NCBI GenBank assembly: GCA_000004985.1
Contig: GG738880.1
Length of the DNA: 64,000 nt
DNA from: Naegleria gruberi
Lineage: Eukaryota
Direction: 5' to 3' (one strand)
Under the pieces are notes generated by a model. The model was not told the origin of the DNA. It saw only the letters and a list, made by a program, of their open reading frames with translations, and did not search any database. Shown piece by piece: positions 1 to 40,102 of this stretch; position 1 is the stretch's first letter; every line of letters begins with the position of its first letter. The position numbers and the translations under genes are program-made.

Positions 1-605
1 AATATCAAACTAATTTAGTTCCATATCCAAGAATTCATTTCATGTTATCTTCATTGGCTCCAATGATTTCACGTCAAGAAAATTATTATCATGATAATAA
101 TGTTGCAGAGTTGACTTCATCTGTTTTTGAAGCTGATAATATGATGGCTAAGTGTAATCCAAGAGATGGAAAGTATATTGCTTCTTGTTTGATGTATAGA
201 GGTGATATTGTTAATAAGGAAGTTACTGATGCTGTCAAAAATGTCAAATCAAAGGCAAATATTCAATTTGTTGATTGGTCTCCATGTGCTTTCAAGATTG
301 GTGTCAATTCTCAAAAGCCAACTGTTTTGCCAGATTCTGAATTTGCTCAAGTTGACAGATCATGTGCCATGATTTCGAATAACACTGCCATTTCACAAGT
401 ATTCGAAAGAATGAACGACAAGTTTGATTTACTTTATGCTAAACGTGCCTATGTCCATCACTTTGTTTCTGAAGGTATGGAAGAAGGTGAATTTGCTGAA
501 GCTCGTGAAGATTTGGCTGCCTTGGAAAAGGATTATACTGAACTTGCTTCCAATTCAGTTGCTGAAGAAGATTCCATGTTGGATGAAGGTGAAACTTTGA
601 ACTAA
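1..605 (+). CDS. alpha-tubulin, 3' portion; the 5' end lies upstream of the window
   Basis: The reading frame is open from base 3 and reads [13 protein letters not shown]...[16 protein letters not shown]...[32 protein letters not shown]. This is the conserved alpha-tubulin C-terminal half with a divergent tail. The stop is at 603-605. Confidence 0.85.
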
Positions 606-992: not shown

Positions 993-1051
993 GCGTCGAT
1001 GGTTTAGTGGTAGAATACGGCGTTGCCATCGCCGTGACCCGGGTTCAATTC
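993..1051 (+). tRNA. tRNA-Gly(GCC) 5' fragment: acceptor, D arm, anticodon arm, and T arm up to the T-loop. The gene is interrupted and is probably a pseudogene
   Basis: GCGTCGATGGTTTAGTGGTAGAATACGGCGTTGCCATCGCCGTGACCCGGGTTCAATTC has a GGCG/TTGCCAT/CGCC anticodon stem-loop with anticodon GCC. The 3' T-stem and acceptor complement is absent here and appears ~750 bp downstream. Confidence 0.7.
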
Positions 1052-1217
1052 ATTTTGATAGTATGAATTATTGTGATTGTGTTTCAATTTGGGAATTTCA
1101 TTTCCCGTTCTCCAACTCTATGTAGGATTTTACTTTTATTAATATTAATTCTTTTTGTTCAAATTTGTGTGCGTCGACCAATTATCAAATTGTCAACATA
1201 CTAGTACATGTATTAAA

Positions 1218-1290
1218 ATCCGTTACCCGATGGTTAATATTCAATTTGTTTATTATGTGTCAATTTCCGTTACCCGATGGTTAATGTTCT
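1218..1290. repeat. Two direct copies, ~44 bp apart, of a ~22-bp motif ccgttacccgatggttaat(a/g)ttc inside the insertion
   Basis: Read directly: 1222-1244 and 1266-1288 are near-identical. The core TTACCCG resembles a Reb1-type site. Confidence 0.6.
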
Positions 1291-1654
1291 ATGTTAATTT
1301 TGTAATATAATGTTTTGAACTGTTTCATCATGTAATGTGTTAATTCAAAGTTTGTGAACATCATCAATGAATAAATAATAAATTTTATTGTGATGACTCC
1401 CAATTAGGAAATTCCGTTTCCCTATACCCAATCATCAATATCTTTAATATTACATTATCAAAATTAATGTGTGAAATACATTTAAATAATAATAATTTAA
1501 AAAACATTGTATTAATTCAATTTCAAAATTGAATTCAATTTCCACATTAGGTAATTCCATAACCCGTTACCTAACTTCCAACTTTTATTTCCAACTTTCC
1601 AATATTTCCAACATTCAATGAAAGAACAACATTCAATGAAAAATTGAAGAACAA

Positions 1655-1726
1655 TTCAACATGATGTTTCACATCATGAATTAAAAATAATGAACAGAAT
1701 TCAACGTGATGTTTCACATCATGAAT
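1655..1726. repeat. Two tandem ~44-bp units, each carrying a perfect hairpin palindrome catgatg-tttca-catcatg
   Basis: ttcaacatgatgtttcacatcatgaat at 1655-1682 and ttcaacgtgatgtttcacatcatgaat at 1699-1726. Each has a 7-bp stem and 5-nt loop. Confidence 0.6.
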
Positions 1727-1795
1727 AATAATAAAATACAACATTCATATTTCCATCATAAAATTAAAAGTTAAATGATTCCAAAAAAAGGAAAT

Positions 1796-1815
1796 TTCAA
1801 TTCCCGGTCGACGCA
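1796..1815 (+). tRNA. tRNA-Gly(GCC) 3' fragment: T-loop remainder, T-stem 3' strand, acceptor 3' strand and discriminator
   Basis: ttcaattcccggtcgacgca complements the 5' acceptor GCGTCGA. It is followed by a TTTTT pol III terminator at 1821-1825. Confidence 0.65.
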
Positions 1816-1820
1816 AGAAA

Positions 1821-1825
1821 GTTTT
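1821..1825 (+). terminator. Pol III oligo-T terminator after the tRNA-Gly 3' fragment
   Basis: TTTTT lies 6 nt after the discriminator base. Confidence 0.4.
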
Positions 1826-2094: not shown

Positions 2095-5070
2095 TTACAG
2101 GGTAAGTTTGTTAATGTTATAGTCAATGCCTTGTTGCAACTTTGGTGGATTGAGTTCAAAAAGTTTCTTAATTGCAGAGGCACTTGTTCCAACTTGTTGT
2201 GGAGGGAGAGACTTCTTCGACCTTATCAAGGAATTTTCGAAAAGGTTGAAAAGTTTCAAATCACACTTGCCTTCTTGTGTTTCAAAATATTCTGGATTTC
2301 CATTCTTTACAGTTTCATAGAATTGATGGAGATCTTTCAAACTCTTAAAGATGACATCCTTCTTGGAACTTGAAGTATTAGTTGTGAAGAGAGATTGCAG
2401 TGAGGATTTGAGGCTGACCTTGAAACCATTCTCACCCTTTGATAAACTCTTGAGGCATGACTTGGTTAATGATTCTCCAAAAAATTCGGTATACTCCTTC
2501 TTCAATTCTAATACATCAATGAGGGAGGAAACGAAATGTTGTGAGTTACATGTCTTGGCATCGAAGAGTCTTGTCGAATTCCATTCACAACACATCTTGG
2601 CAAGTTTTTCAACTGTTGAGTAAACAGTGTCAATACCATAGACAGTTGCAATATCAAATGTTACAGCAGAATCTAAAAGATCTTCACTTCTCACCATTGC
2701 AAAGTCATTTCTCCATTCAATAAAGTATGGACCAACAATAACAGCAACAGAAATATCAGTTGGCATTTCAAGGGAGGAATCCTTTTGTGTGAGACTAGAA
2801 TCATAGATGGCAACCTTGACTTTGACAAATGTTGAATCTTGAGAGACCATTTGTTGTTGAGTCTTCATGGTTGTCTTCTTTGAGAGAGTCTTCTTGAAGA
2901 ACTTGGCAATGAATCTATCCTTCATGATCAAATCGAGACCAATAGTTTCAAAATATTGAGATGCAATTGGTGCCTTCAATCTCTTTAACTTTTCAATAAC
3001 GTTGGAGAGGTTGGATTTGGCTCCTTCGGTCAACTTTTCAAGTTCAGACTCTTCTACAAGTTTCATGGTTGATTCCTTATTGATAAAGTGTGTTTCTTGT
3101 ACGTGTTGTCTTTCACATTCTTGTTTGGCAGCATTAATAATTCTCAAAGCAGATCCAGAAGATAAACCCATTTGAATAAGCTTGTTCTTGCCATACTCGA
3201 ATAATTTTCTACCAGTCAACTTTTTCTTGGAGAGAAGTGAGATGATTCTATCAGAAATGAAAACGTCTCTCATCCATCTGGTCAGCTCCTTATTGTCATA
3301 GTTGAGGAAGGCACATTCTGGAATGGAAGTTTCTTGAACCTTTGAAGGTTGAGGCTTCTTGATATTCAATGAACTGAAAGCTTGAGCCAAGTCAGTTTCA
3401 TCATCGAATGGGAATCCCATACCTTCGAGTTCCTTCTTGATCAATCTCTTCAAGTATGAAACAATTCTTTCATTGAATCCTCGTCTATTGTACTTGACAG
3501 AGAGGTCCAAACAGAGTTTACCTTCAACTGATTCCAAAATACATGGTAAACCTCTCTCATTAATAACATTGCATGCTGATTCAAAGTCACCTCTGGCAAA
3601 TGCGAGATGAAGTGGGAAATTGGCAAAGAATTCAAAATCAGTATCAGAAATTGAATTGTAATGACCTTGATTACCATCTCCATTAGAACTTCCACCACTA
3701 CTACTTCCTCCGCCATTATTACCATCTCCTCCATAGGATCCATCGAAATTATTGAAAAAGTCATTTCCATAGCCATGTCCACCACCGGATCCCTGAGTAT
3801 CTAGTACAATTTGTTGAACTACAGATGGAGGTACATAGGTAAAACCAACTTCACCAGAGAAGTGTTGCATTCTTCTCTTGTGATACAGTTTGACTCTACG
3901 AGAAAGATCACCACCATTATATTTTGGAATGAGGAATGAAATAAATCCAAAATCATTTCTCAATTCAATATTGAAAGGTTCCAAAATATCGAGTGGTTTT
4001 TCACAGCCACTATCGAAAAATACTTGAATATTGCCAACACAATCCTCAGGTTTTGGTAAATTATTATAATTAAATCCAACTTGAACAAGAGTATTTTCAA
4101 TACCCATACTTGGTCTAATCCAAACAGTTTCTGGCATTGTATTTGCAATATCGTGATAGAAAATCAATGAACATATTTTGAATAGTTCTTCAGCTTTTTC
4201 TGGTGATAAATTAAACATGGAAGCGAGTTTGTTTTGAGGGATGGCATTAGAGATACTACCACCAGAGGATGGAGAAGAAGGATAACCATAATGTGATTGT
4301 TGCATTTGTTGTTGTGGTTGTTGGTGATATTGAGGTTGTTGTTGGTAGTACTGATTATTATTGTAGGAAGGAGAAATATTATCTTGCATGTATTCATTAC
4401 TGCTAGCAGAATTTGTTGGTGACATTGAATTAGATGGACTTGATTGATAACAATGTTGTGGAATGACGTAAGGAGTTGCCAAATTTGATTTCTTAAAAGA
4501 TGATGGTGAATTTGCAGTACTTTGATTATGAACAATATTAGTTGTAGTGGTAGGCACATCTTGCATAGTTGCTGCTGATTGTACCTTCTTTTGTGTCTTC
4601 TTATTGGCAAAATAGGATCTCTCGGTCAGGACGTAAATACCTGTTGTTCTCAATAGAATTGATCTCATCATTTGTTGTGTTGATGTTGATGAGGTTGTTG
4701 TTGATGATGAATTTAAACTATTAGGACTGTTGGTGAGTGATTCCTGTACTAATTCAAAGACAATTTTCAGCTTCTTATTAGCAACCTTGATTTGTCTATC
4801 TAATACAAATTCTGCCACACATTCACATGATTGTGGTGAGAAGGTGGCTACAACAACTTCCTTTTGACTTTGTTCGGCATTCTTGTAGAGAATCATGTAT
4901 CGCATGTTAGGATTTGGATTTTCGACAATGGCATTGATGAGAACTTTTTGATTTTCATACCAGGTGATTTCTTCAGAATCAACAGAAGGTGATGGTGGAT
5001 GAGCATCGACAAAACCCACACAATCTGCCTTTCTGTGGTCACAATTTGATACTTTCATAAAGCACTTCAT
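2095..5070 (-). CDS. Large (~990 aa) low-complexity protein with ankyrin-like (PLHLAFARGDFESACNV) and SAM-like (LTRWMRDVF...LFEYGKNKLIQMGLSSGSALRI) segments. It is otherwise uncharacterised
   Basis: A single long ORF. The probable start is MKCFMKVS at 5070; the 5' part of the listed ORF up to 5151 runs into AT-rich upstream sequence. It carries N/Q/S/T-rich tracts typical of dictyostelid proteins. Confidence 0.6.
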   Translation of the reverse strand: MKCFMKVSNCDHRKADCVGFVDAHPPSPSVDSEEITWYENQKVLINAIVENPNPNMRYMILYKNAEQSQKEVVVATFSPQSCECVAEFVLDRQIKVANKKLKIVFELVQESLTNSPNSLNSSSTTTSSTSTQQMMRSILLRTTGIYVLTERSYFANKKTQKKVQSAATMQDVPTTTTNIVHNQSTANSPSSFKKSNLATPYVIPQHCYQSSPSNSMSPTNSASSNEYMQDNISPSYNNNQYYQQQPQYHQQPQQQMQQSHYGYPSSPSSGGSISNAIPQNKLASMFNLSPEKAEELFKICSLIFYHDIANTMPETVWIRPSMGIENTLVQVGFNYNNLPKPEDCVGNIQVFFDSGCEKPLDILEPFNIELRNDFGFISFLIPKYNGGDLSRRVKLYHKRRMQHFSGEVGFTYVPPSVVQQIVLDTQGSGGGHGYGNDFFNNFDGSYGGDGNNGGGSSSGGSSNGDGNQGHYNSISDTDFEFFANFPLHLAFARGDFESACNVINERGLPCILESVEGKLCLDLSVKYNRRGFNERIVSYLKRLIKKELEGMGFPFDDETDLAQAFSSLNIKKPQPSKVQETSIPECAFLNYDNKELTRWMRDVFISDRIISLLSKKKLTGRKLFEYGKNKLIQMGLSSGSALRIINAAKQECERQHVQETHFINKESTMKLVEESELEKLTEGAKSNLSNVIEKLKRLKAPIASQYFETIGLDLIMKDRFIAKFFKKTLSKKTTMKTQQQMVSQDSTFVKVKVAIYDSSLTQKDSSLEMPTDISVAVIVGPYFIEWRNDFAMVRSEDLLDSAVTFDIATVYGIDTVYSTVEKLAKMCCEWNSTRLFDAKTCNSQHFVSSLIDVLELKKEYTEFFGESLTKSCLKSLSKGENGFKVSLKSSLQSLFTTNTSSSKKDVIFKSLKDLHQFYETVKNGNPEYFETQEGKCDLKLFNLFENSLIRSKKSLPPQQVGTSASAIKKLFELNPPKLQQGIDYNINKLTL

Positions 5071-5796
5071 GATGATGATGATGGTAATAGGAAGAAAATA
5101 ATAAAGATAAGGATATAGGAGAGAGAGGATGATGAATTGGTACCGAGGCAAGGCAGGTTATATAATTTAAAAAGGATCACTCAATATAAGTATATTATAC
5201 CTAGGTTGTGGATAGAGGTGATCTCTTCAAATTCTTTGTTGTTGGAGTGTGGTGTTGTTGGTTGGACACAGACTTCAAATCTTGTCTTTTTTTTATAATG
5301 TTGTGATGGATTAAATTATTGCTTCGGAACTGAAACACAAACATGTTAATGAAAGAAACTGAAGGAGAAGAGCGTACCTGAAAGCCAACAAGTCTTCCAA
5401 AAATATTGGTTGACTGAAGAGTGGCTTCAGTAAACTATCAGTTGCAACGAGTAGTAGAATTAGTTGTTGATGAGGTTTAACTTTGACTTGGATGATGAAG
5501 AAGAATGAACTGAGGTTGAATTAATTTTACGTCAAATAGTGAAAATGAATTAATATGAACTGTAAGTATAGGATAATTTAAGTGAACTGTAATGAATTAT
5601 CTACAAAGTTGTTTATTGTAGTTTGATATTTAATTATATACTCAAAGAATACACAATTCTATTCTGACTCATTTATTACCCAACCACATCTTTCTTTTTA
5701 ATACTTGTTCAGCATTATCTTAATACCCTCTAAAGAACAAGTCAAGTTTTGCCCGCCAAAATTGTAGTTTTCTAAAATACAACAATTAAAAAAAAA

Positions 5797-7744: not shown

Positions 7745-10700
7745 TTATTCTTGAATTCGGGTCGAATCCCATCTCTTCAAGAATAGGACGTTAAGCTTTG
7801 ATGCATTGAGATTGTACTTCTTCATGACATTGACTCTAACCTTATCAAATACAAATTGATTTGTAATATCAAAGAAGGATCTATCATATGATTCTGGATC
7901 AATGACAAATACTCTACGGTCTCCATAAAAGTGTGAATTGGCATCTACCAAATCTTGGAACCAAGGAGATTTATCAGCATGTAAACAACTGTAAACTGGC
8001 TCTGAACTAGTCTTGAATTGGAAGTCACACAAGATATGTTCTCCATTGTGGTGAGCATAACCGAACACCACCAATAATACATAGTCTTTGAAAATAGATC
8101 TGGCAGCAAAGCAAAATTGGAACATTGAGTCATCTTGTTTCACCTTGGTGGCTTCATCCAATTGTTGAATTTCACAAAAATGTAAACCTGACATTAATTG
8201 TGAAATGAATTCCTTAGCTTTGACAATTGTTGATTTGTTCTTACCAGTTCCTTCAATCTTTGGAATAGCCATTTTAAGGTGGAAAGAAGACTCGAAATTT
8301 TCCCACAATGTCAAAAAGTTTTCATGAAGTAAATTAATTGGCTTTGTGAGAACGTGAGCCATTTTGATCTTGAATGGTTGGCATCTAATTGTTACAAGTC
8401 CTTCTTGCTTGTTGCCTTCATCCAAAAGATCAATGGTTCCTGAGGACTTGAGATGTGTACATTGTATAATAATATTAAAACAATAGTGTCCAAGTTCTGA
8501 CATTGTAAATTCCAAATCAAATTCATAGGATTGATTTACAGACAAGTCACCAATATTACTTGATGCTTGTTGAGTCTTTTCAAAGAGAGTAAGTGGACCT
8601 TCGAGGCCAACTTCGGCTGTTGTTTTGAAAATATCACATGGTGAATTATTATGTACCTTAACGTGGAGGAATACAGTATATGAGTCAGGCATAACAGAGT
8701 AGGAAGCTGTTACACAGATAGGATCACTTGGTTGGGAGATAATTACAGAGTGGAACTTGGATTCAATGTTAGTTTGTCTAATCTTTGTATTGGCTGAGGT
8801 GGCTGTCAAGAGTTGTTTACCCTTCTTGAGTTGGTAGAGATCTTGTTCGTGCAAATTTGAAATAATAGAGTTGAGTTGTTGAATGCCTTCAATGTAGGAG
8901 GTGAGAATTCTTTCATCTTCTTCCGAGTAGTATGACTTGAAGATTGGGTGATCCTTGTTAAATACCTTACCATAAATAAGTTCAATATCTGACTTGGAAG
9001 CATTATCTCTTGTTATATTGTACTTCATAGCATAATCAACTTTCAATAAAGTTTTTCTGATCAAATCGGCAATATCATCCCTAGTATCGAGTTGTTTCTC
9101 CATCAACATTTTCAAATATTCAAAAGTATCTCTAAGTTTTGGAGTAAATCTCAAACAAACACTGAGTAAACAATAGAGGAGAGTTTCAATCTTTTCCTTA
9201 CTGGACATTCCACCAGAGTTTTTAAGAGTTGAAGAAATCATAAATCTGGTATGGTCAAATACCAAATCACCACTTTCTCTTCCAGCAGCTTGTTTTTGTA
9301 ATTCAACATAATTACTAAGAATACACATGGACATGACTTCAGCAAATTCAGTCTTCATCTTGAGAATGATATCCAAACACTTGTTCAAAATCTTTTGAAT
9401 CTTCTTTCTTTGATCTTCATTTGTATTGAATGATGTGTAGGATTCTCCACACAAATCTGTCAAAACGAGGGCGAACTCTGAAATACTTGCAATTAACCCA
9501 TTAGAGTCTTTCCACGTGAGAGAATTCATTGCAAATTCACAAATGCCAATTCCAACATCCAACCAAGCATGAATGAGTGAATAATCAATGGCAGAGTCTG
9601 TATTCTTTTCAACATTATTGTCATTCTTTGGTGTAAATGGCTTTTGAGTCAAGTATTCACGACACAAACAGAAGAGAAGTTCATTTCTGATTTGTTCTTC
9701 AAATTGTGATTCTGGAACAGTTACAATCTTGGAAATGAACCCTTCTCTCAAGAAGAGGTCAATTTCAACAGGTTCATTCAATTGATCTAAAAGTTTGAGG
9801 AAGTGTTGTTTTGTTCTTGTGTTAATACTGCATTGAATAAGAGTTCTGACTACACTTGATAATATGTACATTCTATTTACGTTGTCACTAACTTTCAAAA
9901 TATGTTCCACAAGTTTCACACAAACAGTATACTTATCACGAACAGTATTTAAAACTGAACAAATATCTTTCATAAGATCATCATAGAAGAAGGATGATTC
10001 TTCTCTGTATAAAAGTCCAAGATAGGCATTTGTTGCATCATCAATTAAATTATTAGTACAAGCTGTCAAATCGCTTGTCATTGAACTATCCATAGCAGTT
10101 AATAAGATACAGTGTGCTGTTTCCAAAACTGTGGCACATTCAACACTTTGAAGCATTGGTCTCAAAACATTTGTTACACTAATCATGACTATTTTCACAA
10201 TAATAATTATAATTACACTATTGTCAAAACCTACCATTATCAAAGGATGAATTGGAACGATCCAATAATTGTTGATGTGAATATTCGTCTTGTAAATATA
10301 ATGAAATGAAAGTAATTGGTCTCAAGGCAGGGTATCTTCTTCTCACATCCATACACTTGAGTCTTGACAAGAGGATGGTAAAATGTGGCTTCATTGCAGC
10401 AATCCATTGCATACTTTCCTTGGTGACAGAAATTGGCAAAGATTCCGCATGAAGATGACGAGCACAATCTCCACAAATAAATTCTCTCAACTAAATTCCA
10501 CACACACCCAATATTATTATCATCATCATCACAACAATATAATAAACCTACCACTTCAAATCCAACAAATGCAATTTCTTGATTATCATCTTTAATAGAT
10601 TTAATCACCCAATCAGAGAAATACTTTGCTGTTGATGATTCACTTGTATTTTGTTGGAAAGCTGTTGATCGTAAAGTCTCGGATTGTCTCAACGAAATTG

Positions 10701-11787: not shown

Positions 11788-14172
11788 TTAAACTGAAGAT
11801 AAATGTTGGAAAGCAAATAAGGCAAATGATTGGAAAACCAGAACAAACAATAAAGAAACAACCAAACATTGGAAAATTCTCATAGAACACAAATAATAAG
11901 TTGAGGATTCTTCAGAACAATCTTCATCGTGGTAATCTTGATCGTGTCTTTCATCGTGCTTGGAATTGGATGCGGCTAGGTCAGTATCATGGTTGGATGG
12001 AATGATAATTGGTTGAGAATGATCATCGTGGAGGTTATGGTGGTGTTCATGTTGTTGATTCTTTTTTGGTTTCGTATAGTAAATGCATTCGTCTTCGTTT
12101 AAAATTTCTTCGTCGTCTGCGTCAGATTCTTCAGATTCTGAAGTGAATTCGTAATTAATTACTTCACATGGACTCTTCTCTTCTTCTTTCAAATGTTGAA
12201 TAACTTCTTTCGGATTTGAAACTTTATCTGAAATCAATTCTTGTTTTGGCGGGAATTTCACAATGGAAAGTTTGGATGGTCCACTAGCTCTGAAAGGAGG
12301 ATTGACTATTTCTTTTGGTTGTTCTGGTGGAAATTGGAGAGGTGGAATGAAAACAGAATTGCAGATTATTTCATCACGATGCTTTGGAATCATCATCTTG
12401 GTTTCTGTTTCAGGTTTCTTTTCGAATATAATCTTGTCACTTTCTTTCTTATCTTCTAGATGAATCATTGGTTCATCCTCAGTTGCAACTTGTTGTTGCT
12501 CATCTGCACTTCCATCAGGACCAATAACTATCCAATGAATCACCTTATGAAGAATCAACCAATAGTAAAGCAAATTCATTGCAGTTGACTTGATGAAATT
12601 TTCAATTGGAGACAAACCACAGTGATTCATCTTGTACTTATCAATAAAATCTCTCTTCTTATTGAATTGAAGAAGTAATTGACGAAGTACGAGCATACTT
12701 TCCTTATGAAGATCATTTCTAATTAATTCAAAGTCTTCAATTCCTTCTTTGGATTTTCCTGACATTCCAATGGTGAGAATATCGAATGATCTCATCTTGA
12801 GATGCTTGGCCAATTCTCTCTTTTTATCAAGAATATTTCTGTCATTGCCAACTAAATCAGTTTTTGTGGCCACTACCAAATATGGAATTCCTTTCGAATC
12901 TAAATAGTGTTGAATTGATTTGGTAATTTGCAATTCTTTTTCATTAAATTCAATTGGAATGGTTAGCATTACCAAATCATGGCACATCACTTGTTGAATC
13001 CTGCCACCTGCCTTAATATTCTCGAATCCATACTCAACCATCTTGTCGCTCATTTCACTTGCAAACATTCCAACATATAATTGTGAAAGTAATTTACAAT
13101 AATTTGGACATTGGTCTTGAGAATCAATTCCTGGCATGTCTGTAAAGATAATTCTTTGAGTAGTGATTTGATCTGAAATGTCAGAATCTATTGGTTGAAA
13201 CATGACAGAACATCTGGAGATGTTTTCATCCCATTTGTAATAGGAAAGTTGGGATTCGTCTTGTGTGACTTGGTGGGTTCTGGTACCATGATCTAAATTT
13301 CTATAAATTGGTCTGAAAACAAGTTTAGGATATGATTCAGAGTTTGGAAGAATTCGTTCACTTTCGAATTCCATAACTGAGGAAAGCAAGGACTTGAGTT
13401 GTGATTTTCCACTTGATGAGCAACCAGCCATGATAACATTCAAAGAAGGAAGTTCTTCACTCATCAATTGTTCCATTTTCCTATTATGGATGTTCAATTC
13501 ACAATTGACTTGCTTTCGTAAAGTTTCCAATGATGGCAAATGATTCATTCTTACATTATTCTTCATTTTAGGATTCAACAATCTAGGAGATGATCTTTCT
13601 GAACGAGGAGTCATTTCACAATCTGAACTAAATGAGGAATAAGCCATTTCGAATAGAGATTGTTTTGGAATTTGGACTTCTAAAGGAGATCTCTCAATTT
13701 CTTGAGTACATTCAGATGAGGAAGTTGAAATCTCAGAAACACATGAATCTAACCTTTCCAATTTGAGATTAGTTTGGAAAGATGACGAATCTTTCAAATC
13801 TTCCTCAGGAATAATTAATTGTTGTGAATTAAACAATAAAGGATCTTCTGAGGAGTATGAATCAGAATCTAGATTGAATAGTAAATTATTACAATAAACT
13901 GGATACTGGTTGAAACCAACATCACTTGTGCTGTTGAGTGGCATGTAACCTAATCCGAAACAAGTATTCGAATCACGAAGAGAATTACTCAATCTTTGAC
14001 TTGTGGAGAAGGTTTCTTCAATAGTGGTGGTGTTACTAATTTGAATTGGAGAGGCAATTCGTTGGAAATTCTTATTCGAATTTGATGATGGTTGTTCGAA
14101 AGTAGAAGAATTCAAACTTTGTTTAGCTTGCTCTTCATGAAAGTAATCTGAAACAATGATTTTATCTTTCAT
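11788..14172 (-). CDS. Tail-anchored P-loop GTPase (paraseptin / IRG / AIG1-like) with an S-rich N-terminal region, an acidic linker and a C-terminal TM helix
   Basis: G1 is MAGCSSSGKSQLKS, G3 is FTDMPGID, and G4 is VVATKTDLVG (a T-K-x-D variant). The C-terminal hydrophobic segment is QCLVVSLLFVLVFQSFALFAF. Confidence 0.65.
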   Translation of the reverse strand: MKDKIIVSDYFHEEQAKQSLNSSTFEQPSSNSNKNFQRIASPIQISNTTTIEETFSTSQRLSNSLRDSNTCFGLGYMPLNSTSDVGFNQYPVYCNNLLFNLDSDSYSSEDPLLFNSQQLIIPEEDLKDSSSFQTNLKLERLDSCVSEISTSSSECTQEIERSPLEVQIPKQSLFEMAYSSFSSDCEMTPRSERSSPRLLNPKMKNNVRMNHLPSLETLRKQVNCELNIHNRKMEQLMSEELPSLNVIMAGCSSSGKSQLKSLLSSVMEFESERILPNSESYPKLVFRPIYRNLDHGTRTHQVTQDESQLSYYKWDENISRCSVMFQPIDSDISDQITTQRIIFTDMPGIDSQDQCPNYCKLLSQLYVGMFASEMSDKMVEYGFENIKAGGRIQQVMCHDLVMLTIPIEFNEKELQITKSIQHYLDSKGIPYLVVATKTDLVGNDRNILDKKRELAKHLKMRSFDILTIGMSGKSKEGIEDFELIRNDLHKESMLVLRQLLLQFNKKRDFIDKYKMNHCGLSPIENFIKSTAMNLLYYWLILHKVIHWIVIGPDGSADEQQQVATEDEPMIHLEDKKESDKIIFEKKPETETKMMIPKHRDEIICNSVFIPPLQFPPEQPKEIVNPPFRASGPSKLSIVKFPPKQELISDKVSNPKEVIQHLKEEEKSPCEVINYEFTSESEESDADDEEILNEDECIYYTKPKKNQQHEHHHNLHDDHSQPIIIPSNHDTDLAASNSKHDERHDQDYHDEDCSEESSTYYLCSMRIFQCLVVSLLFVLVFQSFALFAFQHLSSV

Positions 14173-14814: not shown

Positions 14815-16191
14815 TCAGAAATTAGCTATCATTTCGATATCATCACTAATAGCATTACCACCAATATCTAGCTTAGTTAATTGAGTCATTGTGTTAATGT
14901 ATTTAGCTCCTTCATCACTAAGATTATTGTAAGTAATTGAGAGATGAGTGAGTTGATTCAGTTGACTAACATATTTGGCACCTTCGTCGGTAATGTTATT
15001 GCGACCAATATCAAGTTTTCTTAAATTCTTCAATTCACTTATATGTTTGGCACCTTCATCTTCAATGTTGTTGTAAAAAATATCCAAACTAGTTAATTGT
15101 TTCATTTCACTAATAAATTTGGCTCCTATTGATCCAAGACGATTGTAACCAATGTTCAGATTGGTCAGTTGGTTCATTGTTTTTAAATGTCGAGCTCCTT
15201 CTTCACCAATTTTAGCACCACCTATACTAAGATCGGTTAATTGTTTCATTTCAGTAATGTATCTGGCTCCATTAGGACCTATTCCATTTGCTCCAATACA
15301 TAGAATAGTTAATTGTTTCAACTCGCTTACAAATTTGGCACCATTTTCATCAAGCCTGTTGCCTTCAATAAAGAGATAGGTCAGTTTTTTCATTTGGCTT
15401 AAATATTGGGATCCTAGGTTTCCTAGATTATTGTAACCAATATCCAGATGAGTCAATCCTTCCATCTCACTAATGTGACGAGCTCCTTTATCACCAATAC
15501 GATTGCCATGGATGTTAAGATTAGTCAATTGTTTCATTTGACTAATATATTCAGCTCCAGGTTCTCCAATATTATTATTGCCAATATTCATGCAAGTTAA
15601 TTGGCTCATTTGACTAATATATTTGGCTCCTTCGTCCATAATCTTATTGTTACGAATATTAAAATTGGTCAAATGTTTCAATTCACTAAAACATTTAACT
15701 CCTTCATTACCAATCTTATTGTCCTCAACATTAAGATTAGTTAATTGTTTCAATTGAGGAATGCACTTGGCACCTTCATTACGAATCTTACTACGTATAG
15801 TAAGATTATTCAACGATCCCATAAACTCCAATACATGGCAATCAAATGTATTGAAATATTGGTTCACGTTAAGACTTTGAATATTTTGTAAAAATCGTCC
15901 TCCCAATGTCAATTCATTTTCACATTTCAATGAAAGAAATTTACATCTTTCCAACACGACATTCAACCACTGTTTCGAAACCAATGCACAACTCATCACT
16001 ATAAATCTAAAATCATCCCGAAGAAAAGATAAAATTTCATACAATACATCATCGGGCAATATTTCTTTATCAGAATTTAATTTTTTAAATTTTCTTTCTG
16101 ATTGGAAATTGCTAATTATTAATTGATCGTCGGCTACATGCGATTGATCATTGTGATCATCTTGAAAGACTTTTCTATTTCGTTTGCTCAT
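14815..16191 (-). CDS. F-box protein with 13 ribonuclease-inhibitor-type (NLR-like) 24-aa LRRs
   Basis: The F-box reads LPDDVLYEILSFLRDDFRFIVMSCALVSKQWLNVVL. Tandem units follow of the form LTxLNIxxNxIGxEGAKYISxMKQ. Confidence 0.8.
   Translation of the reverse strand: MSKRNRKVFQDDHNDQSHVADDQLIISNFQSERKFKKLNSDKEILPDDVLYEILSFLRDDFRFIVMSCALVSKQWLNVVLERCKFLSLKCENELTLGGRFLQNIQSLNVNQYFNTFDCHVLEFMGSLNNLTIRSKIRNEGAKCIPQLKQLTNLNVEDNKIGNEGVKCFSELKHLTNFNIRNNKIMDEGAKYISQMSQLTCMNIGNNNIGEPGAEYISQMKQLTNLNIHGNRIGDKGARHISEMEGLTHLDIGYNNLGNLGSQYLSQMKKLTYLFIEGNRLDENGAKFVSELKQLTILCIGANGIGPNGARYITEMKQLTDLSIGGAKIGEEGARHLKTMNQLTNLNIGYNRLGSIGAKFISEMKQLTSLDIFYNNIEDEGAKHISELKNLRKLDIGRNNITDEGAKYVSQLNQLTHLSITYNNLSDEGAKYINTMTQLTKLDIGGNAISDDIEMIANF
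14830..15775 (-). repeat. About 13 tandem 72-bp coding repeats (the RNI-type LRR array) within the F-box gene
   Basis: The periodic protein repeat is visible in the translation, and nucleotide periodicity is visible by eye. Confidence 0.6.
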
Positions 16192-16289
16192 TTTTTTTGA
16201 ATATTTATCAAATAAGAAATAGTCAACTGGAAAGCTTATGGAATCAGTTGTTCAAGTGAGTGATTAATTGTTCTGCAATCGTGTTGTAA

Positions 16290-16362
16290 TCCCCCTTAGC
16301 TCAGTCGGTAGAGCGTCAGACTGTTAATCTGCAGGTCGGTGGTTCGAGCCCACCAGGGGGAG
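16290..16362 (+). tRNA. tRNA-Asn (anticodon GTT)
   Basis: The sequence TCCCCCTTAGCTCAGTCGGTAGAGCGTCAGACTGTTAATCTGCAGGTCGGTGGTTCGAGCCCACCAGGGGGAG has a 7-bp acceptor, a GCTC/GAGC D-stem, anticodon loop CTGTTAA, and T-arm GGTGG/TTCGAGC/CCACC. Confidence 0.9.
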
Positions 16363-16368
16363 TTGTAA

Positions 16369-16373
16369 TTTTT
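16369..16373 (+). terminator. Pol III oligo-T terminator after tRNA-Asn
   Basis: TTTTT lies 7 nt after the tRNA 3' end. Confidence 0.4.
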
Positions 16374-16515
16374 GTTTCTGACATTTTGAACCAAATATTT
16401 TTCAAAGAAGAATGTTCTAAACTATGAAGAATTAAGCTGAATATTCTTCAATAAGGGAGTGGTTCTTTTGCAAAATCAATTTTGAGCTAAGAAATTTTGG
16501 AGTTTCTTTTGTTTA

Positions 16516-17241
16516 TTAACACAACAACTCTGAAATGGAAATTTTCATTCGTCTTGTAGTGGAGGAGGACCTTGTCGAGATCAATTGCTTGTGAGGTTTC
16601 GACATCTTGTGTTGTTTATGTATCTTGCTGTTATTTGTCTGAAGAGTGAATGAATCAATTTGATCCCACAATTTACTGTACAAGTCTTCCTTTTCTGGAA
16701 AGTGAACATTCGAATAGGTTCTACTAGGTGAATGTTCTACTGTAGTGGTCGTTGTAACAGTTGTTGTTGGTGAAGAAGGACAATTTGGAAAGTTAGCAAC
16801 AATATTCGAATAGACAAGTTTCGTACACTTATTACCAACAAGTGGTGATGGAGGTGAAAGTTTAGAAAGATGAGCTGGTCTTGGATAGAATGAGGCTGTG
16901 TTAGTAGTTTTGATTGTGGTTGGTGCGTAAGGCATGAGTAAGTTAGCAATATTGGTATGTGAAAGATTATTCGAAAGTGGACTATTTGTTGGATTAATGT
17001 GAGGAGATCTTGGAGAATTGGTTTGGGGTTGATTGTGAGTGATGGAGGTGGATGTTGAGGTTGTGGAAATGGTTGGAGGTGAAACGCAAGCTGTTTGTCT
17101 TTGAGCTGAAACAGTATTCGAATCATTAGAAGACGAAACTTCTGATCTTGTAGGTGATGCAGGACTGCCAGTTGTCAATTGACCATTCTCTGTTGACAAT
17201 GTTGAAGCGTAGAGTTGAAATAACTTTTTGTTTCTCTTCAT
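16516..17241 (-). CDS. S/T/P-rich low-complexity protein (241 aa), function unknown
   Basis: The ORF has typical codon usage and TTTTT/SPSP tracts. It has no recognisable domain. Confidence 0.4.
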   Translation of the reverse strand: MKRNKKLFQLYASTLSTENGQLTTGSPASPTRSEVSSSNDSNTVSAQRQTACVSPPTISTTSTSTSITHNQPQTNSPRSPHINPTNSPLSNNLSHTNIANLLMPYAPTTIKTTNTASFYPRPAHLSKLSPPSPLVGNKCTKLVYSNIVANFPNCPSSPTTTVTTTTTVEHSPSRTYSNVHFPEKEDLYSKLWDQIDSFTLQTNNSKIHKQHKMSKPHKQLISTRSSSTTRRMKISISELLC

Positions 17242-17884
17242 TTCGTATTATTATTGTGTAGACGAAAGTAATTTCACTTGTTTCACTTTTTTTTGTTGGT
17301 GAGATTCGTGCTTATGCATTAGAAAGGGTGAATTTAGAATGAGAAAAGCGATTGTTTTTTTGCGTGTCAAATGGTTGACATCCGACAGTTGGAGTTAGGA
17401 TTCGGCTGATGTGAAGATGAATAGTTTGCCGAATCTCTTTATGATTGTAAAGTTTGAATGACACAAACACGAATCCATAAGTCATCAACGAATCCGTAAC
17501 GAATCACCATCACCAATTGATTAATACCATTTGTGTAATTTGTGTTTGTGTTTGGAAGTAAACAGTTTTTTGATATTGTAATCAAACTATACAGCATTCA
17601 GTTACATTTTTGATTATTGAAAATGCAATTACATTGATATGTGTTTGTATTGTATACTCACAATTATTATTGGCACAACCAACTTTCTAATTGATAAATC
17701 AAAAAGGAGTTAAAACTCCGTCATGCTGAAATTGTTATTTCTTAATACTCCAAGCTACATTTTTCAAAAAAAAACTCAATAAGTCATCTCCGAAGAAGAA
17801 AATTTCAAGCTCTATTTCTCTACTACTAACCAGTAACAATGTACTAAGATTCACAACATGACCTTACTTCTAATTTAAAAAAAA

Positions 17885-18780: not shown

Positions 18781-21700
18781 ATGCCATCCAAGAAGAAGAA
18801 GCAGCCAAAAACGCCTTCTTCCTCCTCTTCAGAAGATGAAGATCATCTCCAACACAACAACAACAACACTTCACCGCTTCCCTATGTTTCTTCTTGGTTA
18901 CCTCCTTCATTGTTGCATTCTCCGTCATCACCAACGACAAATTCATCATCACCGACTACGATTTACGCGCCAACAACGTCTCAAGGTGTTGTAGGAAAAT
19001 CAAACTCTAAGAATAAGAAGAAGAATAATCGGAATGATGATGCTGATGAGAATCATGATGGAAGAAATATTAATATTAATAATTTGAATAATTTGAATAG
19101 TAATAATAACGTTGATAATAATGATGAGAAAACACTCTCTGATATGGACGATGAGTGGAATCACATCATTGAACAATATCACTCCCTCATCAGGAATAAG
19201 CAAAATAATGAACATGAGGCTAATCATGATTTATTCAATATTATTGAAGGAAATTCGGCCACACCAAATTATGGAAGTTATGATGATCAATATAATTTAC
19301 CTTCATATGCTGATAGGAGAAAATCAATGCTCGTCTTTCCAACATCAACCATCCTCTCTTCATCACCAAATAACAACAATAATAATAATAATAAGGAGAA
19401 TGATAAGAAGAAGAAGAGAAAGTTTGCATCACTGAGGAGGAAGAATAGAAATCAACAAAATTTACCAAGTGATGAAGAAACAGAACAACAACTCCATCAT
19501 CATCACTATAATGAAACAGTGCAGCCAACAGATCCTGACTTTCCAACATTGTCCTTCTGTGATTTAATGTTAATTGGAGCTGCCACTCAACAACATCCGC
19601 ATGGATTATTGACAAGTGCCACAACAGCAACAACAACAACAACTTCTGGAAGTGTTAGCACGACTCAATCTCCTTCATTGCCGATGGGAATGAGAAATAA
19701 CATTGGAAGTAATTTGCTGGGTTATTACGATCATCATCATCATGCATTATCTTCTTCTCCAATGCTTGGTGGTTCTCCTTCTCTCTCTTCACCAAATGTG
19801 ATTGGAAAAGGTAATGGAGATTTTGGTGGTGGATTTTCACAAGTTGACAAGTCGTTGAATCTAATGCTATTTCCAAATACAGCATCCACAACTCCACTAT
19901 CACCTTCATTTCCAACAAGTACTGCGCTCAGCACTAAACCACTTTCATTGGATTTATCAAAATTAAAAGCAAAATCAGCAGCTAGTCAGGCAGCTAGTTG
20001 TCAAACACCTGAAGTTTCGGATAAGAAGAAGATTTTTAAACGAAGAGAAAGGTCTGCATCATCATTTTCATTAGGAGGCAGTAAACAACATCCAGATAGT
20101 CCAAGTCAGAGACATCACCGATTGAATAATTCAGATTCAAATTCAAATTCAAGATTACAACAAGGAATGTCATTCACAAAGTGGTCGGAACTCATTCAAA
20201 ACAATGGTGCATTTGCGAGAATTAATAACATTTCGCCCTCTTCACCTGCTCTGGGACAGAATGATGAAGATTCACAGAGTAATGGAAATGCAAATGATAT
20301 TCTTTCACATGATAGTACGGAAATTTTCGATCAGTTGGAGGATATTCTTTCCTATCAGCTGCCAATCAGCCCTAGGTATAGAACCTATTCTAAATCATCG
20401 AATACAAGGAGGGATACCTCCGAGACACTCAATGATGAAGAGCAACAACAACAGCAGCAGTCACAACAACATGATGAAACACGAACGAGTGAGGATATTA
20501 TTGGAGATGAGGAAGAGGATGAAATGGACGATCTCATAGATGGAGCCATTAGTAATTTCAATCGAGCCACTGACAGTAGCACTGAACAAGGAGATAAATC
20601 CTCTTCAAATAATCCTGTGGATTTACAATTTGCATTGATTGGAAGTCGTGGAAAGATGGCCGATTGGGTCAAAGAAAAGGAGAAGGAAAAGGAGACTCTT
20701 CCACAAAATTTGCCATCTCTTAGGGAGGGAAGATCTCCACAAGAGACTAGAAAGGGAGACCCCTCACGACAACACATTTCAAAAACTAGATTTTCATTCA
20801 CTTCACGCTCTGCAGTTAATTTGAATTCTGTTAACAATAATCAAAAATCACTTATTGAAGATATCGATTCTGAAAAATCGACATCATTTACTGAGGGAAA
20901 TTCTCCTCAATTTAGACCAAAGGGAAGAAAGAGAAGTTTAAGCCATATGATGGTTAATGCAAGTGTTTGCTTGCATTTTGCAATTGACAAGTAAGTAATT
21001 TGTTATACTTTCATTTTTTAACATTTCTAATTATTATAATACTTTCGTGTTTTTTATAATATAGTTTTAAGGGAATTGATGAATTTATCAAGGAAGAACA
21101 AGAGAAGGTCAATCTTAGAAATGAAAATAATTCAACCACTGATGATCAATCATTCTGTGTCCAGTTACATGTCTTGCACAGAGTCAAGAAATCTAACAAT
21201 ACCTATGCATGGATTTCACTCATTCACACTCAAAATGTAAACCTCCTCGATTTGGAATCATTCAACTCATCAGACAAGAGTAAAATCACATCTGATGTTG
21301 TCCATTTCGAAACTAGTGCTACCTTACCATTCAATTTTGAAAAGATTACACCACTCCTCTTTGCACTCATCAGTACACGAACAAATCAAGTGCTAGGTTC
21401 CTATGAGGGTTGTTTGGCAGAGATTTGTGGAAGTCAGCAGCTAATGATACGAAGAAAACTCATCAAGCAAAAGAAACACTTTTGTGATTTGGTAGTCAAG
21501 GCATCCATACCACCAGGAAATGAGAAACGACTCTCAGTTTTGGAAAATCTTGGAAATACCGTAAGGGAGCAACTCTCGCTGGCTCCACCTCTCGATTTAT
21601 TCAATGATATTCCCACAACAGAGTCTCCTCTCATTTCAGATTCGAGCTCTTCAGTAACTCCTGATATGAATAATGATGGTTCACTCCTGAGAAAGAAATT

Positions 21701-39187: not shown

Positions 39188-40102
39188 ATGAATGACAGAT
39201 TCAATAGAAGAATAATGAATCATTCTGAACATTTGGAATTTTCACTCTACTCCCAAAATTTGCTAGCTGGATGTTGGTCCACTGATTTAAACGAATATTC
39301 GTATGTTGAAGAGCCAAAAGAAGAACACTTGGAATGGAGTGGAAGGGTGAAGAAATTGGTGAGGGATTTTACAATTCATCAGCCTGATATAATTTGTTTA
39401 CAAGAAGTTGAAACTCTATGTTTTGAAAAGGACATTTTGAAACCATTGCAACAAATTGATGAAAGCTATCGAGGAGTTTTAAAGAAAACACTTGGAGATT
39501 TTCCTGTAGGAGTTGGATGTATTTTTAAGGAAAACGTATTTGAACTAGTTCGATTTTTTGAAACAAGTTGTTCCATAATTCTAGTTTTGAAATTCAAAGC
39601 CAACAATTCATTGATTTATGTTACATCATGTCATTTATTTGGAGATCCTAATCAACCTTACACAAGAATCAATCAATTGAAGTCAATATTCAAGAATTTG
39701 AAAAAATATCAGAAAGGAAACCATTGTTCCACCATTATTTGTGGAGATTTCAATGCAGAACCCAATTCTGCTACCTATAATTTTGTGGTCAACTCACAAT
39801 TGAAATCAAAATCAGAGGAGAATAATGTCATTGCCACAGAGACAGATATTCAACATCAGTTTAAATTCAAAAGTGCCTACAAGGAAATTATTGGAAATGA
39901 ACCTGAGTTTACCTTCAGACCAATTGAAATTGCACTAACGTGTGATTATATTTTCTACAGTTGTGATCCTTTAGAAATTGGTGGAATCATGTCACTTTAT
40001 GAGAATGAACAAGATAGAGAAAGGATACACCAAGTGGGATTACCCAATTCAAAATATGGATCTGATCATTTAGGTCAACAAGCATACTTTTCTTTCAAGT
40101 AA
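39188..40102 (+). CDS. Endonuclease/exonuclease/phosphatase (EEP) family protein (CCR4/nocturnin/angel-like)
   Basis: Motifs are PDIICLQEVE, ICGDFNAEPNS and GSDHL at the C-terminus. Confidence 0.75.
   Translation: MNDRFNRRIMNHSEHLEFSLYSQNLLAGCWSTDLNEYSYVEEPKEEHLEWSGRVKKLVRDFTIHQPDIICLQEVETLCFEKDILKPLQQIDESYRGVLKKTLGDFPVGVGCIFKENVFELVRFFETSCSIILVLKFKANNSLIYVTSCHLFGDPNQPYTRINQLKSIFKNLKKYQKGNHCSTIICGDFNAEPNSATYNFVVNSQLKSKSEENNVIATETDIQHQFKFKSAYKEIIGNEPEFTFRPIEIALTCDYIFYSCDPLEIGGIMSLYENEQDRERIHQVGLPNSKYGSDHLGQQAYFSFK

Follow-up and report, generated by a model that had tools for sequence, protein, structure and literature searches.

The tRNA-Gly(GCC) gene described here is split by a 744-bp insert that lies within its T-loop. 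The analysis covered a 64,000-nucleotide stretch of Naegleria gruberi DNA (the window), and it places the two halves of the gene at 993–1051 and 1796–1815. These are exactly the coordinates given in an earlier note that was made from the sequence alone. The components of the split gene are listed in order along the + strand.

993–1051, + strand: tRNA-Gly(GCC) 5' fragment, GCGTCGATGGTTTAGTGGTAGAATACGGCGTTGCCATCGCCGTGACCCGGGTTCAATTC, nt 1–59 of 71; holds the 5' acceptor strand, the D arm (A box), the anticodon arm, the 5' T-stem strand, the T-loop, and the first base of the 3' T-stem strand
Left junction: B-box region GGTTCAATTC, 10 of 11 positions retained in the 5' fragment
1044–1051, + strand: left copy of the duplication TTCAATTC, T-loop nt 54–60 plus nt 61
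1052–1795, + strand: 744-bp insert, 25.4% GC, non-coding and internally repetitive
1796–1803, + strand: right copy of the duplication TTCAATTC
1796–1815, + strand: tRNA-Gly(GCC) 3' fragment, TTCAATTCCCGGTCGACGCA, nt 52–71; holds the T-loop, the 3' T-stem strand, the 3' acceptor strand, and the discriminator A
1822–1826, + strand: T5 run that originally served the tRNA gene as its pol III terminator

The duplicated segment comprises the 7-nt T-loop plus one further base, the first of the 3' T-stem strand, and it is in register with the tRNA in both fragments. It is therefore a true 8-bp duplication and not a chance match, and it occupies both junctions as first described. Excision of 1052–1803 in silico produces a 71-nt tRNA-Gly(GCC) that ARAGORN folds into a perfect cloverleaf with the acceptor, anticodon, and T stems all paired; the restored pairing that had been claimed for the excised gene thus held on recount. 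With the insert in place, ARAGORN forces a poor tRNA model at 992–1063, and the locus scores 21.2 bits against the Rfam tRNA family, which has a gathering score of 29. The excised tRNA is identical at 71 of 71 positions to an intact tRNA-Gly(GCC) at 207–277 of L002, an independent, Naegleria-like metagenome contig. The 5' fragment is identical to L002 207–265 and the 3' fragment to L002 258–277. The native pol III terminators are T5 and, for the tRNA-Ile on L002, T4. The tRNA-Gly(GCC) gene is multicopy in N. gruberi, and one copy has been struck.

The ORF adjoining the split tRNA is NAEGRDRAFT_80454 of N. gruberi with 100% identity, and four further ORFs in the window are exact N. gruberi NEG-M proteins. 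The dictyostelid framing of the earlier note was wrong on these identities. Because the host is Naegleria, comparison with the elements TRE5, TRE3, and DGLT-A is an analogy only. A Pfam search of 30 window ORFs identified host-type domains only, with no transposable element (TE) domain, no autonomous partner, and no recombinase gene.

Composition and repeats of the insert

The GC content of the insert was compared to 31.2% for the remainder of the window outside ORFs of at least 150 aa and to 28–31% for the immediate flanks. No ORF longer than 57 aa lies wholly within 1052–1795, and the insert has no match to an Rfam family. Terminal inverted repeats (TIRs) were not detected: the termini match at no more than 10 of 20 positions in any of nine registers, and local alignments of the ends score at the level of shuffled sequence. 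A search of the insert for sub-terminal inverted repeats gave none that is significant. These data bear out the original description of an AT-rich, non-coding, repeat-rich insert without TIRs in the T-loop/B box. The features of the insert are as follows.

1053–1056, + strand (tRNA sense): first run of four or more T residues (T4+), starting 2 nt past the junction; predicted pol III terminator
1128, 1134, 1152 (T5), 1298, 1313, 1383, and 1583, tRNA sense strand: positions of the remaining T4+ runs, eight in all, each a predicted pol III terminator
1091–1110, + strand: GGGAATTTCATTTCCCGTTC, which matches the 3' junction of the insert itself, GGAAATTTCAATTCCCGGTC, at 17 of 20 positions; a small hairpin is possible
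1170–1179, − strand: TGCGTCGACC, identical to the reverse-complemented tRNA 3' end GGTCGACGCA (1806–1815)
1208–1245 and 1255–1292, + strand: two 38-nt direct repeats, 84% alike, 47 bp start to start
1407–1426, + strand: motif copy GGAAATTCC...CCC / CCGTTNCC, reading GGAAATTCCGTTTCCCTATA; a hairpin is possible
1550–1571, + strand: motif copy GGTAATTCCATAACCCGTTACC, a further member of the CCGTTNCC motif set
1586–1641, + strand: short tandem arrays with roughly 3.5 units of TTTCCAAC and two of CAACATTCAATGAAA
1653–1726, + strand: two hairpin units with 47-bp spacing
1660–1678, with a variant at 1706–1725, + strand: hairpin CATGATGT-TTC-ACATCATG
1783–1795, + strand: A-rich 3' end of the insert, AAAAAAAGGAAAT, abutting the right copy of TTCAATTC

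The repeats of the insert are 66–90% alike among themselves and include two duplications with a 47-bp period. The exact 20-mer TCCGTTACCCGATGGTTAAT is common to the two 38-nt direct repeats. A 22-bp direct repeat had been reported; the repeat is present, with this exact shared 20-mer at the 47-bp spacing. All four + strand CCGTTNCC sites in the 64-kb window are located inside the insert (1220, 1267, 1414, and 1564), compared to 0.05 expected for the insert at the window frequency. The hairpin repeats seen previously are the two units in 1653–1726, and the A7 tract was located at 1783–1789. This tract, 6 nt from the insert 3' end, is the only run of A or T of at least seven residues in the insert, and the A-rich 3' end is short and impure. 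At the left junction the sequence is TTCAATTC-ATTTTGATAG, which does not restore the tRNA 3' end.

The idea of a pol III-associated element did not survive. There is no tRNA-like head at the insert 5' end, where the score of the first 75 nt was reached by 205 of 1000 shuffles. The eight T4+ runs on the sense strand mean that the insert is not a plausible pol III transcription unit. The same two results led us to reject a tRNA-derived SINE or other pol III retroposon.

Target-like motifs and searches for further copies

Two motifs in the insert, at 1091–1110 and 1170–1179, resemble the target, and both are less than 130 bp from the insert 5' end. The first is the sole match of at least 15/20 to the 3' junction on either strand of the window. 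Around the second, 1161–1179 matches the inverted tRNA 3' end plus its 3' flank at 15 of 19 positions. With all junction-spanning 20-mers tested, a 17/20 junction-like copy was reached in 40 of 1000 and 73 of 3000 shuffles. An exact 10-mer of the tRNA 3' end was reached in 31 of 1000 and 116 of 3000, and both motifs occurred together in 3 of 3000. The motifs were chosen post hoc, and each alone has a frequency of approximately 2–4% by shuffling. Matches to the tRNA 5' flank are at chance in the insert (8 of 100 shuffles reach the observed sum of the top eight scores), and its other tRNA-like or flank-like matches are also at the chance level. The insert had been said to carry degenerate copies of the B box and tRNA 3' end. 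The internal repeats are real, but their tRNA origin is only marginal on these shuffle counts. The B-box positions corresponding to tRNA G53 and A58 are conserved. Both are altered in the B-box-like motifs, so these are not the good B boxes that had been supposed. The target-like motifs may be relics of past residence in tRNA-Gly genes, and they hint at a target preference, short of demonstrating one.

Further copies of the insert were sought in several sequence sets. BLASTN against the 64-kb window gave only matches of up to 38 nt at the chance level, and nothing similar is located nearby. A second copy was not found by an exact scan of the JGI metagenomes with an internal 24-mer, by an exact-pattern scan of the GTDB genomes, or by blastn against phages and plasmids. 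Three exact patterns run against IMG/VR also gave no second copy; the single match (L003) is a chance match of 19–26 nt. Single-copy status thus applies to the window, the JGI metagenomes, IMG/VR, GTDB, phages, and plasmids, with the N. gruberi genome outside this scope, and on this basis the insert has the status of a candidate mobile element. An orthologue contig (L001, 53% identical) contains no tRNA and shows no synteny. A strain with 98% DNA identity is present in run ERR1078381 of PRJEB11402 (contigs L004 and L005). No contig with its tRNA-Gly locus was reached using the neighbor protein, the tubulin C-terminus, or a chimeric query that joined every spurious ORF from the filled allele and from the empty one.

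A recent insertion as the preferred reading

The locus probably records a single recent insertion of a 744-bp non-coding segment into one tRNA-Gly(GCC) copy, the segment most likely being an unclassified, TIR-less, non-autonomous mobile element; we hold this with confidence somewhat above even. The two halves and the duplication rebuild a perfect tRNA identical to the intact gene, which indicates that the event was clean and recent compared to the decay among the insert repeats. Eight bases in register in both fragments are what a staggered-cut insertion would leave. The motif copies inside the insert are only 70–85% alike while the tRNA halves and duplication are unmutated, so the internal repeats are older than the insertion. 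This order of events disfavors locally generated tRNA 3'-end duplications, offered in the earlier note as a second option, as the source of the whole insert. The low GC content, the separate repeat system, and the lack of similar sequence nearby appear to set the insert apart and would support the insertion reading. The reading also draws on the two target-like motifs, which occur together in 3 of 3000 shuffles, and on Dada as a precedent for TIR-less insertion within tRNA genes. Counting against a mobile element, one copy is known in the searched sets, the insert has no coding capacity, no recognizable termini, and no partner in the window, its A-rich end is short and impure, and the TE content of N. 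gruberi is reportedly very low (0.28% according to one preprint). In a compact genome, tRNA genes make up a non-negligible part of the DNA that is not essential, and a random strike therefore requires no targeting.

The duplication suggests a sequence of steps. The target would have been cut with an 8-bp stagger across the T-loop, the element joined in the same orientation as the tRNA, and the 8 bp doubled by gap repair. We lean slightly toward target-primed retroposition, the source being a retroelement sequence that is pol II-derived or 5'-truncated, because the insert has no inverted termini and its only A7 run is 6 nt from the 3' end, against the duplication. With regard to target-primed reverse transcription, AAAAAAAGGAAAT directly precedes the right repeat and TIRs are absent; the tail is short and impure, and it has no known reverse transcriptase partner. 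A TIR-less DDE transposon of the Dada type would be the second option. The 8-bp duplication is longer than the 6–7 bp typical of Dada, which may count against it, and the absence of the Dada sub-terminal inverted repeats does count against it.

The A box and 10 of the 11 B-box positions are kept, and TFIIIC and pol III could still load on the split gene. Transcription would end at the TTTT located 2 nt into the insert, giving a product without the 3' T-stem and acceptor strands. The early T4 run and the truncated product mark this gene copy as a pseudogene, and it is most likely dead. The locus is a well-documented tRNA pseudogene produced by a clean insertion, and the genome around it reportedly holds very few TEs. 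The pseudogene is useful as an indicator of recent insertional activity in N. gruberi, and the insert is a good presence/absence marker between strains.

Known short elements share some of these properties. Protist non-LTR retroposons and SINEs (e.g., Entamoeba SINE1) and 5'-truncated LINEs are a few hundred bp long, AT-rich, non-coding, and TIR-less. The protist retroposons and SINEs have internal repeats, target duplications of variable length, and an A-rich 3' end. The insert is likewise short, AT-rich, non-coding, TIR-less, and repeat-bearing with an A-rich 3' end, but it differs in having no pol III head, many sense-strand T runs, a short and impure A tail, and no known LINE or reverse transcriptase partner. 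An 8-bp duplication, a short non-coding AT-rich body, and sub-terminal repeats are shared with hAT-type MITEs. However, hAT elements have TIRs, whereas the insert has none in any register, and a hAT-like MITE was rejected. TRE5, TRE3, and DGLT-A encode reverse transcriptase and integrate at fixed distances outside tRNA genes via the pol III complex (PMC5006619, PMC5391098). They also link mobile DNA to tRNA genes in a compact, gene-dense protist genome, but they belong to another supergroup, and the insert is intragenic and non-coding. Membership in these families was rejected based on the N. gruberi host and the position inside the T-loop.

Alternative explanations

The explanations that compete with a single mobile-element insertion are taken in order of falling confidence. 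The insert may be a non-autonomous member of an undescribed, TIR-less Heterolobosea family specific to the tRNA T-loop/B box, Dada-like, recombinase-driven, or otherwise new, that recognizes its target via element-borne target-like motifs. We consider this idea, put forward in the earlier note and here carried over to Naegleria, unlikely. The insertion is exactly in the conserved T-loop and in the sense orientation, and the joint occurrence of the 17/20 junction near-copy and the inverted 10-mer in so few shuffles argues for such a family. GGRAATTTCAWTTCCCGKTC and the inverted tRNA 3' end would then serve to guide insertion or, alternatively, be traces of earlier insertions. Against it, each motif alone is marginal and selected post hoc, and a second insertion was not observed in the searched sets.

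To our knowledge, no eukaryotic DNA transposons other than Dada are known to insert within tRNA genes. Dada are TIR-less and produce duplications of 6–7 bp; the 8 bp apparent in Dada-U1 and Dada-tIA was re-read by the authors as 6 bp (PMC3706591, PMC8869645). Their tRNA sites are nt 8–13 (A box) and the anticodon region, and their defined sub-terminal inverted repeats each lie a fixed distance away from the duplication (PMC3706591, PMC8869645). The superfamily includes internally deleted non-autonomous derivatives, and its members have been found in protists (Perkinsus) and are unreported from Naegleria or Discoba (Kojima & Jurka 2013, PMC3706591; Kojima 2022, PMC8869645). Sub-terminal motifs of Dada also include short stretches identical to the target, and ancestral flanks of the target are sometimes carried along, which favors the family reading. 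The insert resembles Dada in its position within a tRNA gene, lack of TIRs, short duplication, and target-like motifs. It differs in its location in the T-loop/B box, never a known Dada site, in its clear 8-bp duplication, and in having no significant sub-terminal inverted repeats, no transposase or link to an autonomous copy, and one known copy in the searched sets. The segments at 1091–1110 and 1170–1179 are target-like, but they fall outside the Dada geometry.

If the insert were multicopy and T-loop-specific, the B-box/T-loop position would join the "safe-haven" strategies, which at present consist of retrotransposons that insert next to tRNA genes and of Dada, with its sites in the A box or the anticodon region. 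Such targeting would also gain a deep-branching eukaryotic lineage and a sequence-defined target-recognition system open to dissection. If true, a T-loop-specific Heterolobosea family would make this the first eukaryotic element with T-loop specificity, and Discoba would gain their first transposon that targets small-RNA genes.

One-off repair of a double-strand break, with no mobile element involved, is also unlikely. A staggered break in the T-loop would have been filled in and ligated to unrelated or patchwork filler in which the tRNA 3' end had been copied in short templated stretches, both direct and inverted. The presence of one copy in the searched sets, the lack of transposon hallmarks (TIRs, ORF), and the direct and inverted tRNA 3'-end copies at 1091–1110 and 1170–1179, which look like templated insertions, are all consistent with this scheme. 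However, 744 bp is very long for templated filler, and its source is absent from the surrounding 64 kb. The 66–90% similarity among the insert repeats beside unmutated tRNA halves indicates that the structure of the insert predates its insertion, and transposition is the more usual source of a clean 8-bp duplication.

It is improbable that a circular DNA, either a tyrosine-recombinase remnant or eccDNA, was integrated by a single crossover in an 8-bp core TTCAATTC common to the donor and the T-loop. The event would be site-specific or microhomology-mediated, with the inverted stems of the T-arm forming a symmetric recombinase site, and the flanking repeat would be the crossover core and not a repair-made duplication. 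The duplicated 8 bp are almost exactly the T-loop between the inverted T-stem strands, and the insert has no TIRs. The joined ends, GGAAAT-TTCAATTC-ATTTTG, form a further member of the insert motif family GGRAAT-TYCNNNNC. Prokaryotic integrative elements with tyrosine integrases reportedly use the tRNA T-loop sublocation, as Williams is said to have described in 2002 (Nucleic Acids Res). The similarities to these elements are a crossover or duplicated segment that is the 7-nt T-loop, symmetric T-stem flanks, and direct-repeat bounds. In contrast, the present locus is a eukaryotic nuclear gene with an 8-bp identity block and no integrase, and the insert supplies no replacement 3' end, so the tRNA is destroyed. 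Tyrosine-recombinase retroelement-like sequences have been reported, unconfirmed, in N. gruberi (PMC3266345), and they count in favor of a circular donor. Against it, a recombinase gene is absent from the insert and from the 30 window ORFs, the common core is only 8 bp, and the left junction does not restore the tRNA 3' end as classical tRNA-integrating elements do. Literature searches gave no eukaryotic precedent for T-loop integration. A tRNA-integrating tyrosine-recombinase element was rejected because there is no ORF or integrase and the TTCAATTC-ATTTTGATAG junction leaves the tRNA unrestored.

It is extremely improbable that the arrangement is functional, whether as a giant non-canonical intron of the tRNA or as a split tRNA with halves that are joined as RNA. 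Both halves are perfectly conserved and the exon order is collinear, but the position is the T-loop and not 37/38, and the 8-bp overlap is a DNA-level duplication that splicing does not need. With native terminators of T5 and T4, pol III would be stopped by the eight sense-strand T4+ runs, the first of which is 2 nt into the insert. Minimum-free-energy folding, applied to mini-intron constructs and to the complete precursor, gave no bulge-helix-bulge at the junctions; together with the T runs, this shows that the insert is not an intron. A related genome also carries the identical gene uninterrupted (L002). The T-loop position, the missing bulge-helix-bulge, and the T runs from 1053 led us to reject both forms of the arrangement. 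An assembly artefact that joined unrelated reads can be given equally little credence: nothing direct supports it beyond the origin of the window in a draft scaffold of 416,450 bp, and a chimera would not give two in-register, same-strand tRNA fragments that overlap by exactly 8 bp and lie 744 bp apart.

The interrupted tRNA-Gly(GCC) gene

The earlier note described a tRNA-Gly(GCC) gene split in its T-loop/B box by a repeat-rich insertion. The sequence at 993-1815 is as it described, and both tRNA halves and the 8-bp duplication are confirmed.

993-1051, plus strand: tRNA-Gly(GCC) 5' fragment, the tRNA's initial 59 nt
1052-1795, plus strand: insert, 744 bp
1796-1815, plus strand: tRNA-Gly(GCC) 3' fragment, the tRNA's final 20 nt
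1044-1051 and 1796-1803, plus strand: 8-bp duplication TTCAATTC, present in both tRNA fragments

The two copies of TTCAATTC cover identical tRNA positions, the 7-nt T-loop and the initial base of the T-stem's 3' strand. After in silico removal of 1052-1803, the remaining 71-nt gene forms a perfect cloverleaf in ARAGORN, which bears out the claim that excision restores the tRNA. From the unexcised locus, ARAGORN yields only a badly paired, forced model (992-1063), and the Rfam tRNA model scores 21.2 bits versus a gathering score of 29. An exact-pattern scan of the JGI metagenomes, using the 3' end of the tRNA 5' fragment as the query, returned a single Naegleria-like contig (L002) with an uninterrupted tRNA-Gly(GCC) at 207-277 followed by a T5 terminator. 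The excised sequence is identical to this gene at 71/71 positions, thus neither the tRNA halves nor the duplication carries a substitution. The native T5 terminator is also still present at 1822-1826, behind the 3' fragment. The TTCAATTC repeat is a genuine 8-bp target-sequence duplication, and the locus is a real insertion inside the T-loop. On L002, the intact tRNA-Gly gene lies 87 bp from a tRNA-Ile(AAT) gene (47-119) on the same strand, and its 5' and 3' flanks are completely unlike those in the window.

The left junction retains the A box and 10/11 B-box positions, and pol III loading on the split gene may still be possible. The insert begins with ATTTTG, and its sense strand holds eight runs of T4 or longer, one a T5 at 1152-1156; the native terminators observed are T5 runs, apart from the T4 run of the tRNA-Ile on L002. 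The predicted product would be a truncated RNA of ~60 nt without the 3' strands of the T-stem and acceptor stem, which would make the split copy a pseudogene. The sense-strand T4+ runs and the lack of a bulge-helix-bulge at the junctions led to the rejection of an intron or a split tRNA. An intact tRNA-Asn(GTT) gene (16290-16362, plus strand; Rfam 67.9 bits; T5 terminator at 16369-16373) was the local reference for an undisturbed pol III gene.

Composition, repeats and target likeness of the insert

The GC content of the insert is 25.4%, compared to 28-31% in the immediate flanks and 31.2% in other window DNA not covered by ORFs of at least 150 aa. No ORF wholly within the insert exceeds 57 aa, and an Rfam search of the insert gave no match. 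Terminal inverted repeats (TIRs) were not found in any of the nine registers permitted by the duplication, and no sub-terminal inverted repeats of the insert exceeded the shuffle level. The insert holds two 38-nt direct repeats, 47 bp apart, that share an exact 20-mer, two hairpin units with 47-bp spacing, and the short repeats TTTCCAAC and CAACATTCAATGAAA. The CCGTTACCCGATGGTTAAT repeat (1208/1255) and the hairpin unit (1660/1707) are unrelated duplications of equal 47-bp period. The same-strand motif GGRAATTYC...CCGTTNCC is also present; CCGTTNCC has four sites on the plus strand of the 64-kb window, 4/4 inside the insert, versus ~0.05 expected.

Two sites in the insert resemble its target.

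1091-1110: junction-like sequence GGGAATTTCATTTCCCGTTC, a 17/20 match to the insert's own 3' junction GGAAATTTCAATTCCCGGTC
1170-1179: inverted tRNA 3' end, exact reverse complement of GGTCGACGCA

The first is the window's only match of at least 15/20 to GGAAATTTCAATTCCCGGTC on either strand. A 17/20 match was reached in 0/1000 shuffles when the single, already picked 20-mer was tested, and in 40/1000 and 73/3000 when all 76 junction-spanning 20-mers were tested. An exact 10-mer common to the tRNA occurred in 31/1000 and 116/3000 shuffles, and both features jointly in 3/3000. The many other stretches resembling the tRNA 5' end or its 5' flank were at chance level. On modest, post hoc sequence evidence, short remnants or mimics of the 3' portion of tRNA-Gly are probably present in the insert. 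The pol III-type element suggested in the earlier note is disfavored: the initial 75 nt have no tRNA likeness, and the "B-box-like" motifs are poor B boxes because they differ at the conserved positions equivalent to tRNA G53 and A58.

A second copy of the insert was not detected in the window, JGI metagenomes, IMG/VR, GTDB genomes, phages, or plasmids. Metagenome ERR1078381 holds a strain with 98% DNA identity to the window. Its tRNA-Gly locus was not recovered via protein handles in a search that included a chimeric query of all spurious ORFs from the filled and empty alleles (the locus with the insert and its in silico excised form). One contig of this strain (L004; ENA ERZ929261) is 98.4% identical to window 15163-17671, and its positions 142-329 (~190 nt) stand in place of window 17672-17691 (~20 nt), an intergenic replacement or indel. 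By sequence, this difference separates two N. gruberi-like strains that are very closely related.

Origin of the insert

We propose that the insert arrived in one discrete event at a staggered cut in the tRNA-Gly T-loop. The clean, in-register 8-bp duplication, the unmutated tRNA halves, and the foreign composition argue for such an event. The internal repeats are far more diverged than the tRNA halves, indicating a repeat system older than the insertion, which argues against the piecemeal local duplication of tRNA 3' ends also considered earlier.

With a single copy, several element classes are candidates. Target-primed retroposition, other than of a pol III SINE, fits the lack of TIRs and the A-rich 3' end adjoining the duplication: an A7 tract, the insert's only A/T run of at least 7, lies 6 nt from the insert 3' end, directly 5' of the right duplication copy. 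By analogy, a Dada-type DNA transposon is a candidate. Dada elements are the only eukaryotic DNA transposons known to insert inside tRNA genes; they also lack TIRs, bear short motifs identical to the target or flanks from an ancestral target, and make duplications of 6-7 bp, at times apparently 8 bp as here (PMC3706591, PMC8869645). However, their known target sites are tRNA nt 8-13 or the anticodon region rather than the T-loop, they have defined sub-terminal inverted repeats that the insert lacks, and there is no report of them from Naegleria. A third possibility, likened to prokaryotic T-loop integrases, would be integration of a DNA circle by one crossover in an 8-bp core with the T-loop at its centre, but the locus has no recombinase and the insertion left the tRNA unrestored. 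One-off break repair with filler DNA may instead explain the insert, though it fits poorly with the insert size and the pre-existing repeat structure. A hAT-like MITE is excluded by the missing TIRs, although the duplication is 8 bp.

We regard the locus as a tidy but unremarkable tRNA pseudogene, created by insertion of an unclassified element. tRNA genes are a small, non-negligible part of the dispensable DNA of a compact genome, so a lone random hit suffices. It is unlikely that the insert represents a new family targeting the T-loop.

Genomic surroundings

The comparison with dictyostelid tRNA-targeting elements is only an analogy because the host is Naegleria gruberi.

2095-5151, minus strand: tRNA-adjacent ORF, 100% identical to N. 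gruberi NAEGRDRAFT_80454

Four further window ORFs match N. gruberi NEG-M proteins exactly, and the scaffold concerned measures 416,450 bp. The split tRNA lies within a 1.5-kb interval flanked by two convergent genes. The window has the usual make-up of compact eukaryotic DNA and encodes tubulin, F-box/LRR proteins, a kinase, a cyclase, and a phosphatase. Pfam detected no transposon-type domains among 30 ORFs. A 304-aa ORF (39188-40102, plus strand) has an endonuclease/exonuclease/phosphatase domain (PF03372, E=1e-9), a fold used by LINE endonucleases and likewise by many host enzymes; it is probably a host gene since no reverse transcriptase is close by. The C-terminal 187 aa of an unusually divergent alpha-tubulin are encoded at 42-605 (plus strand). 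Its best match among 5.8 billion protein clusters is 68% identical, with the N. gruberi protein not among the returns, and by sequence it may belong to the divergent tubulins of Naegleria. Long ORFs (500-920 aa) without any Pfam match lie at 7745-10243, 11788-14172, 18781-20994, 21174-22697, 25150-27573, 35945-38719, and 48495-51209; at least two of them, 11788-14172 and 25150-27573, carry the N. gruberi annotation "predicted protein".
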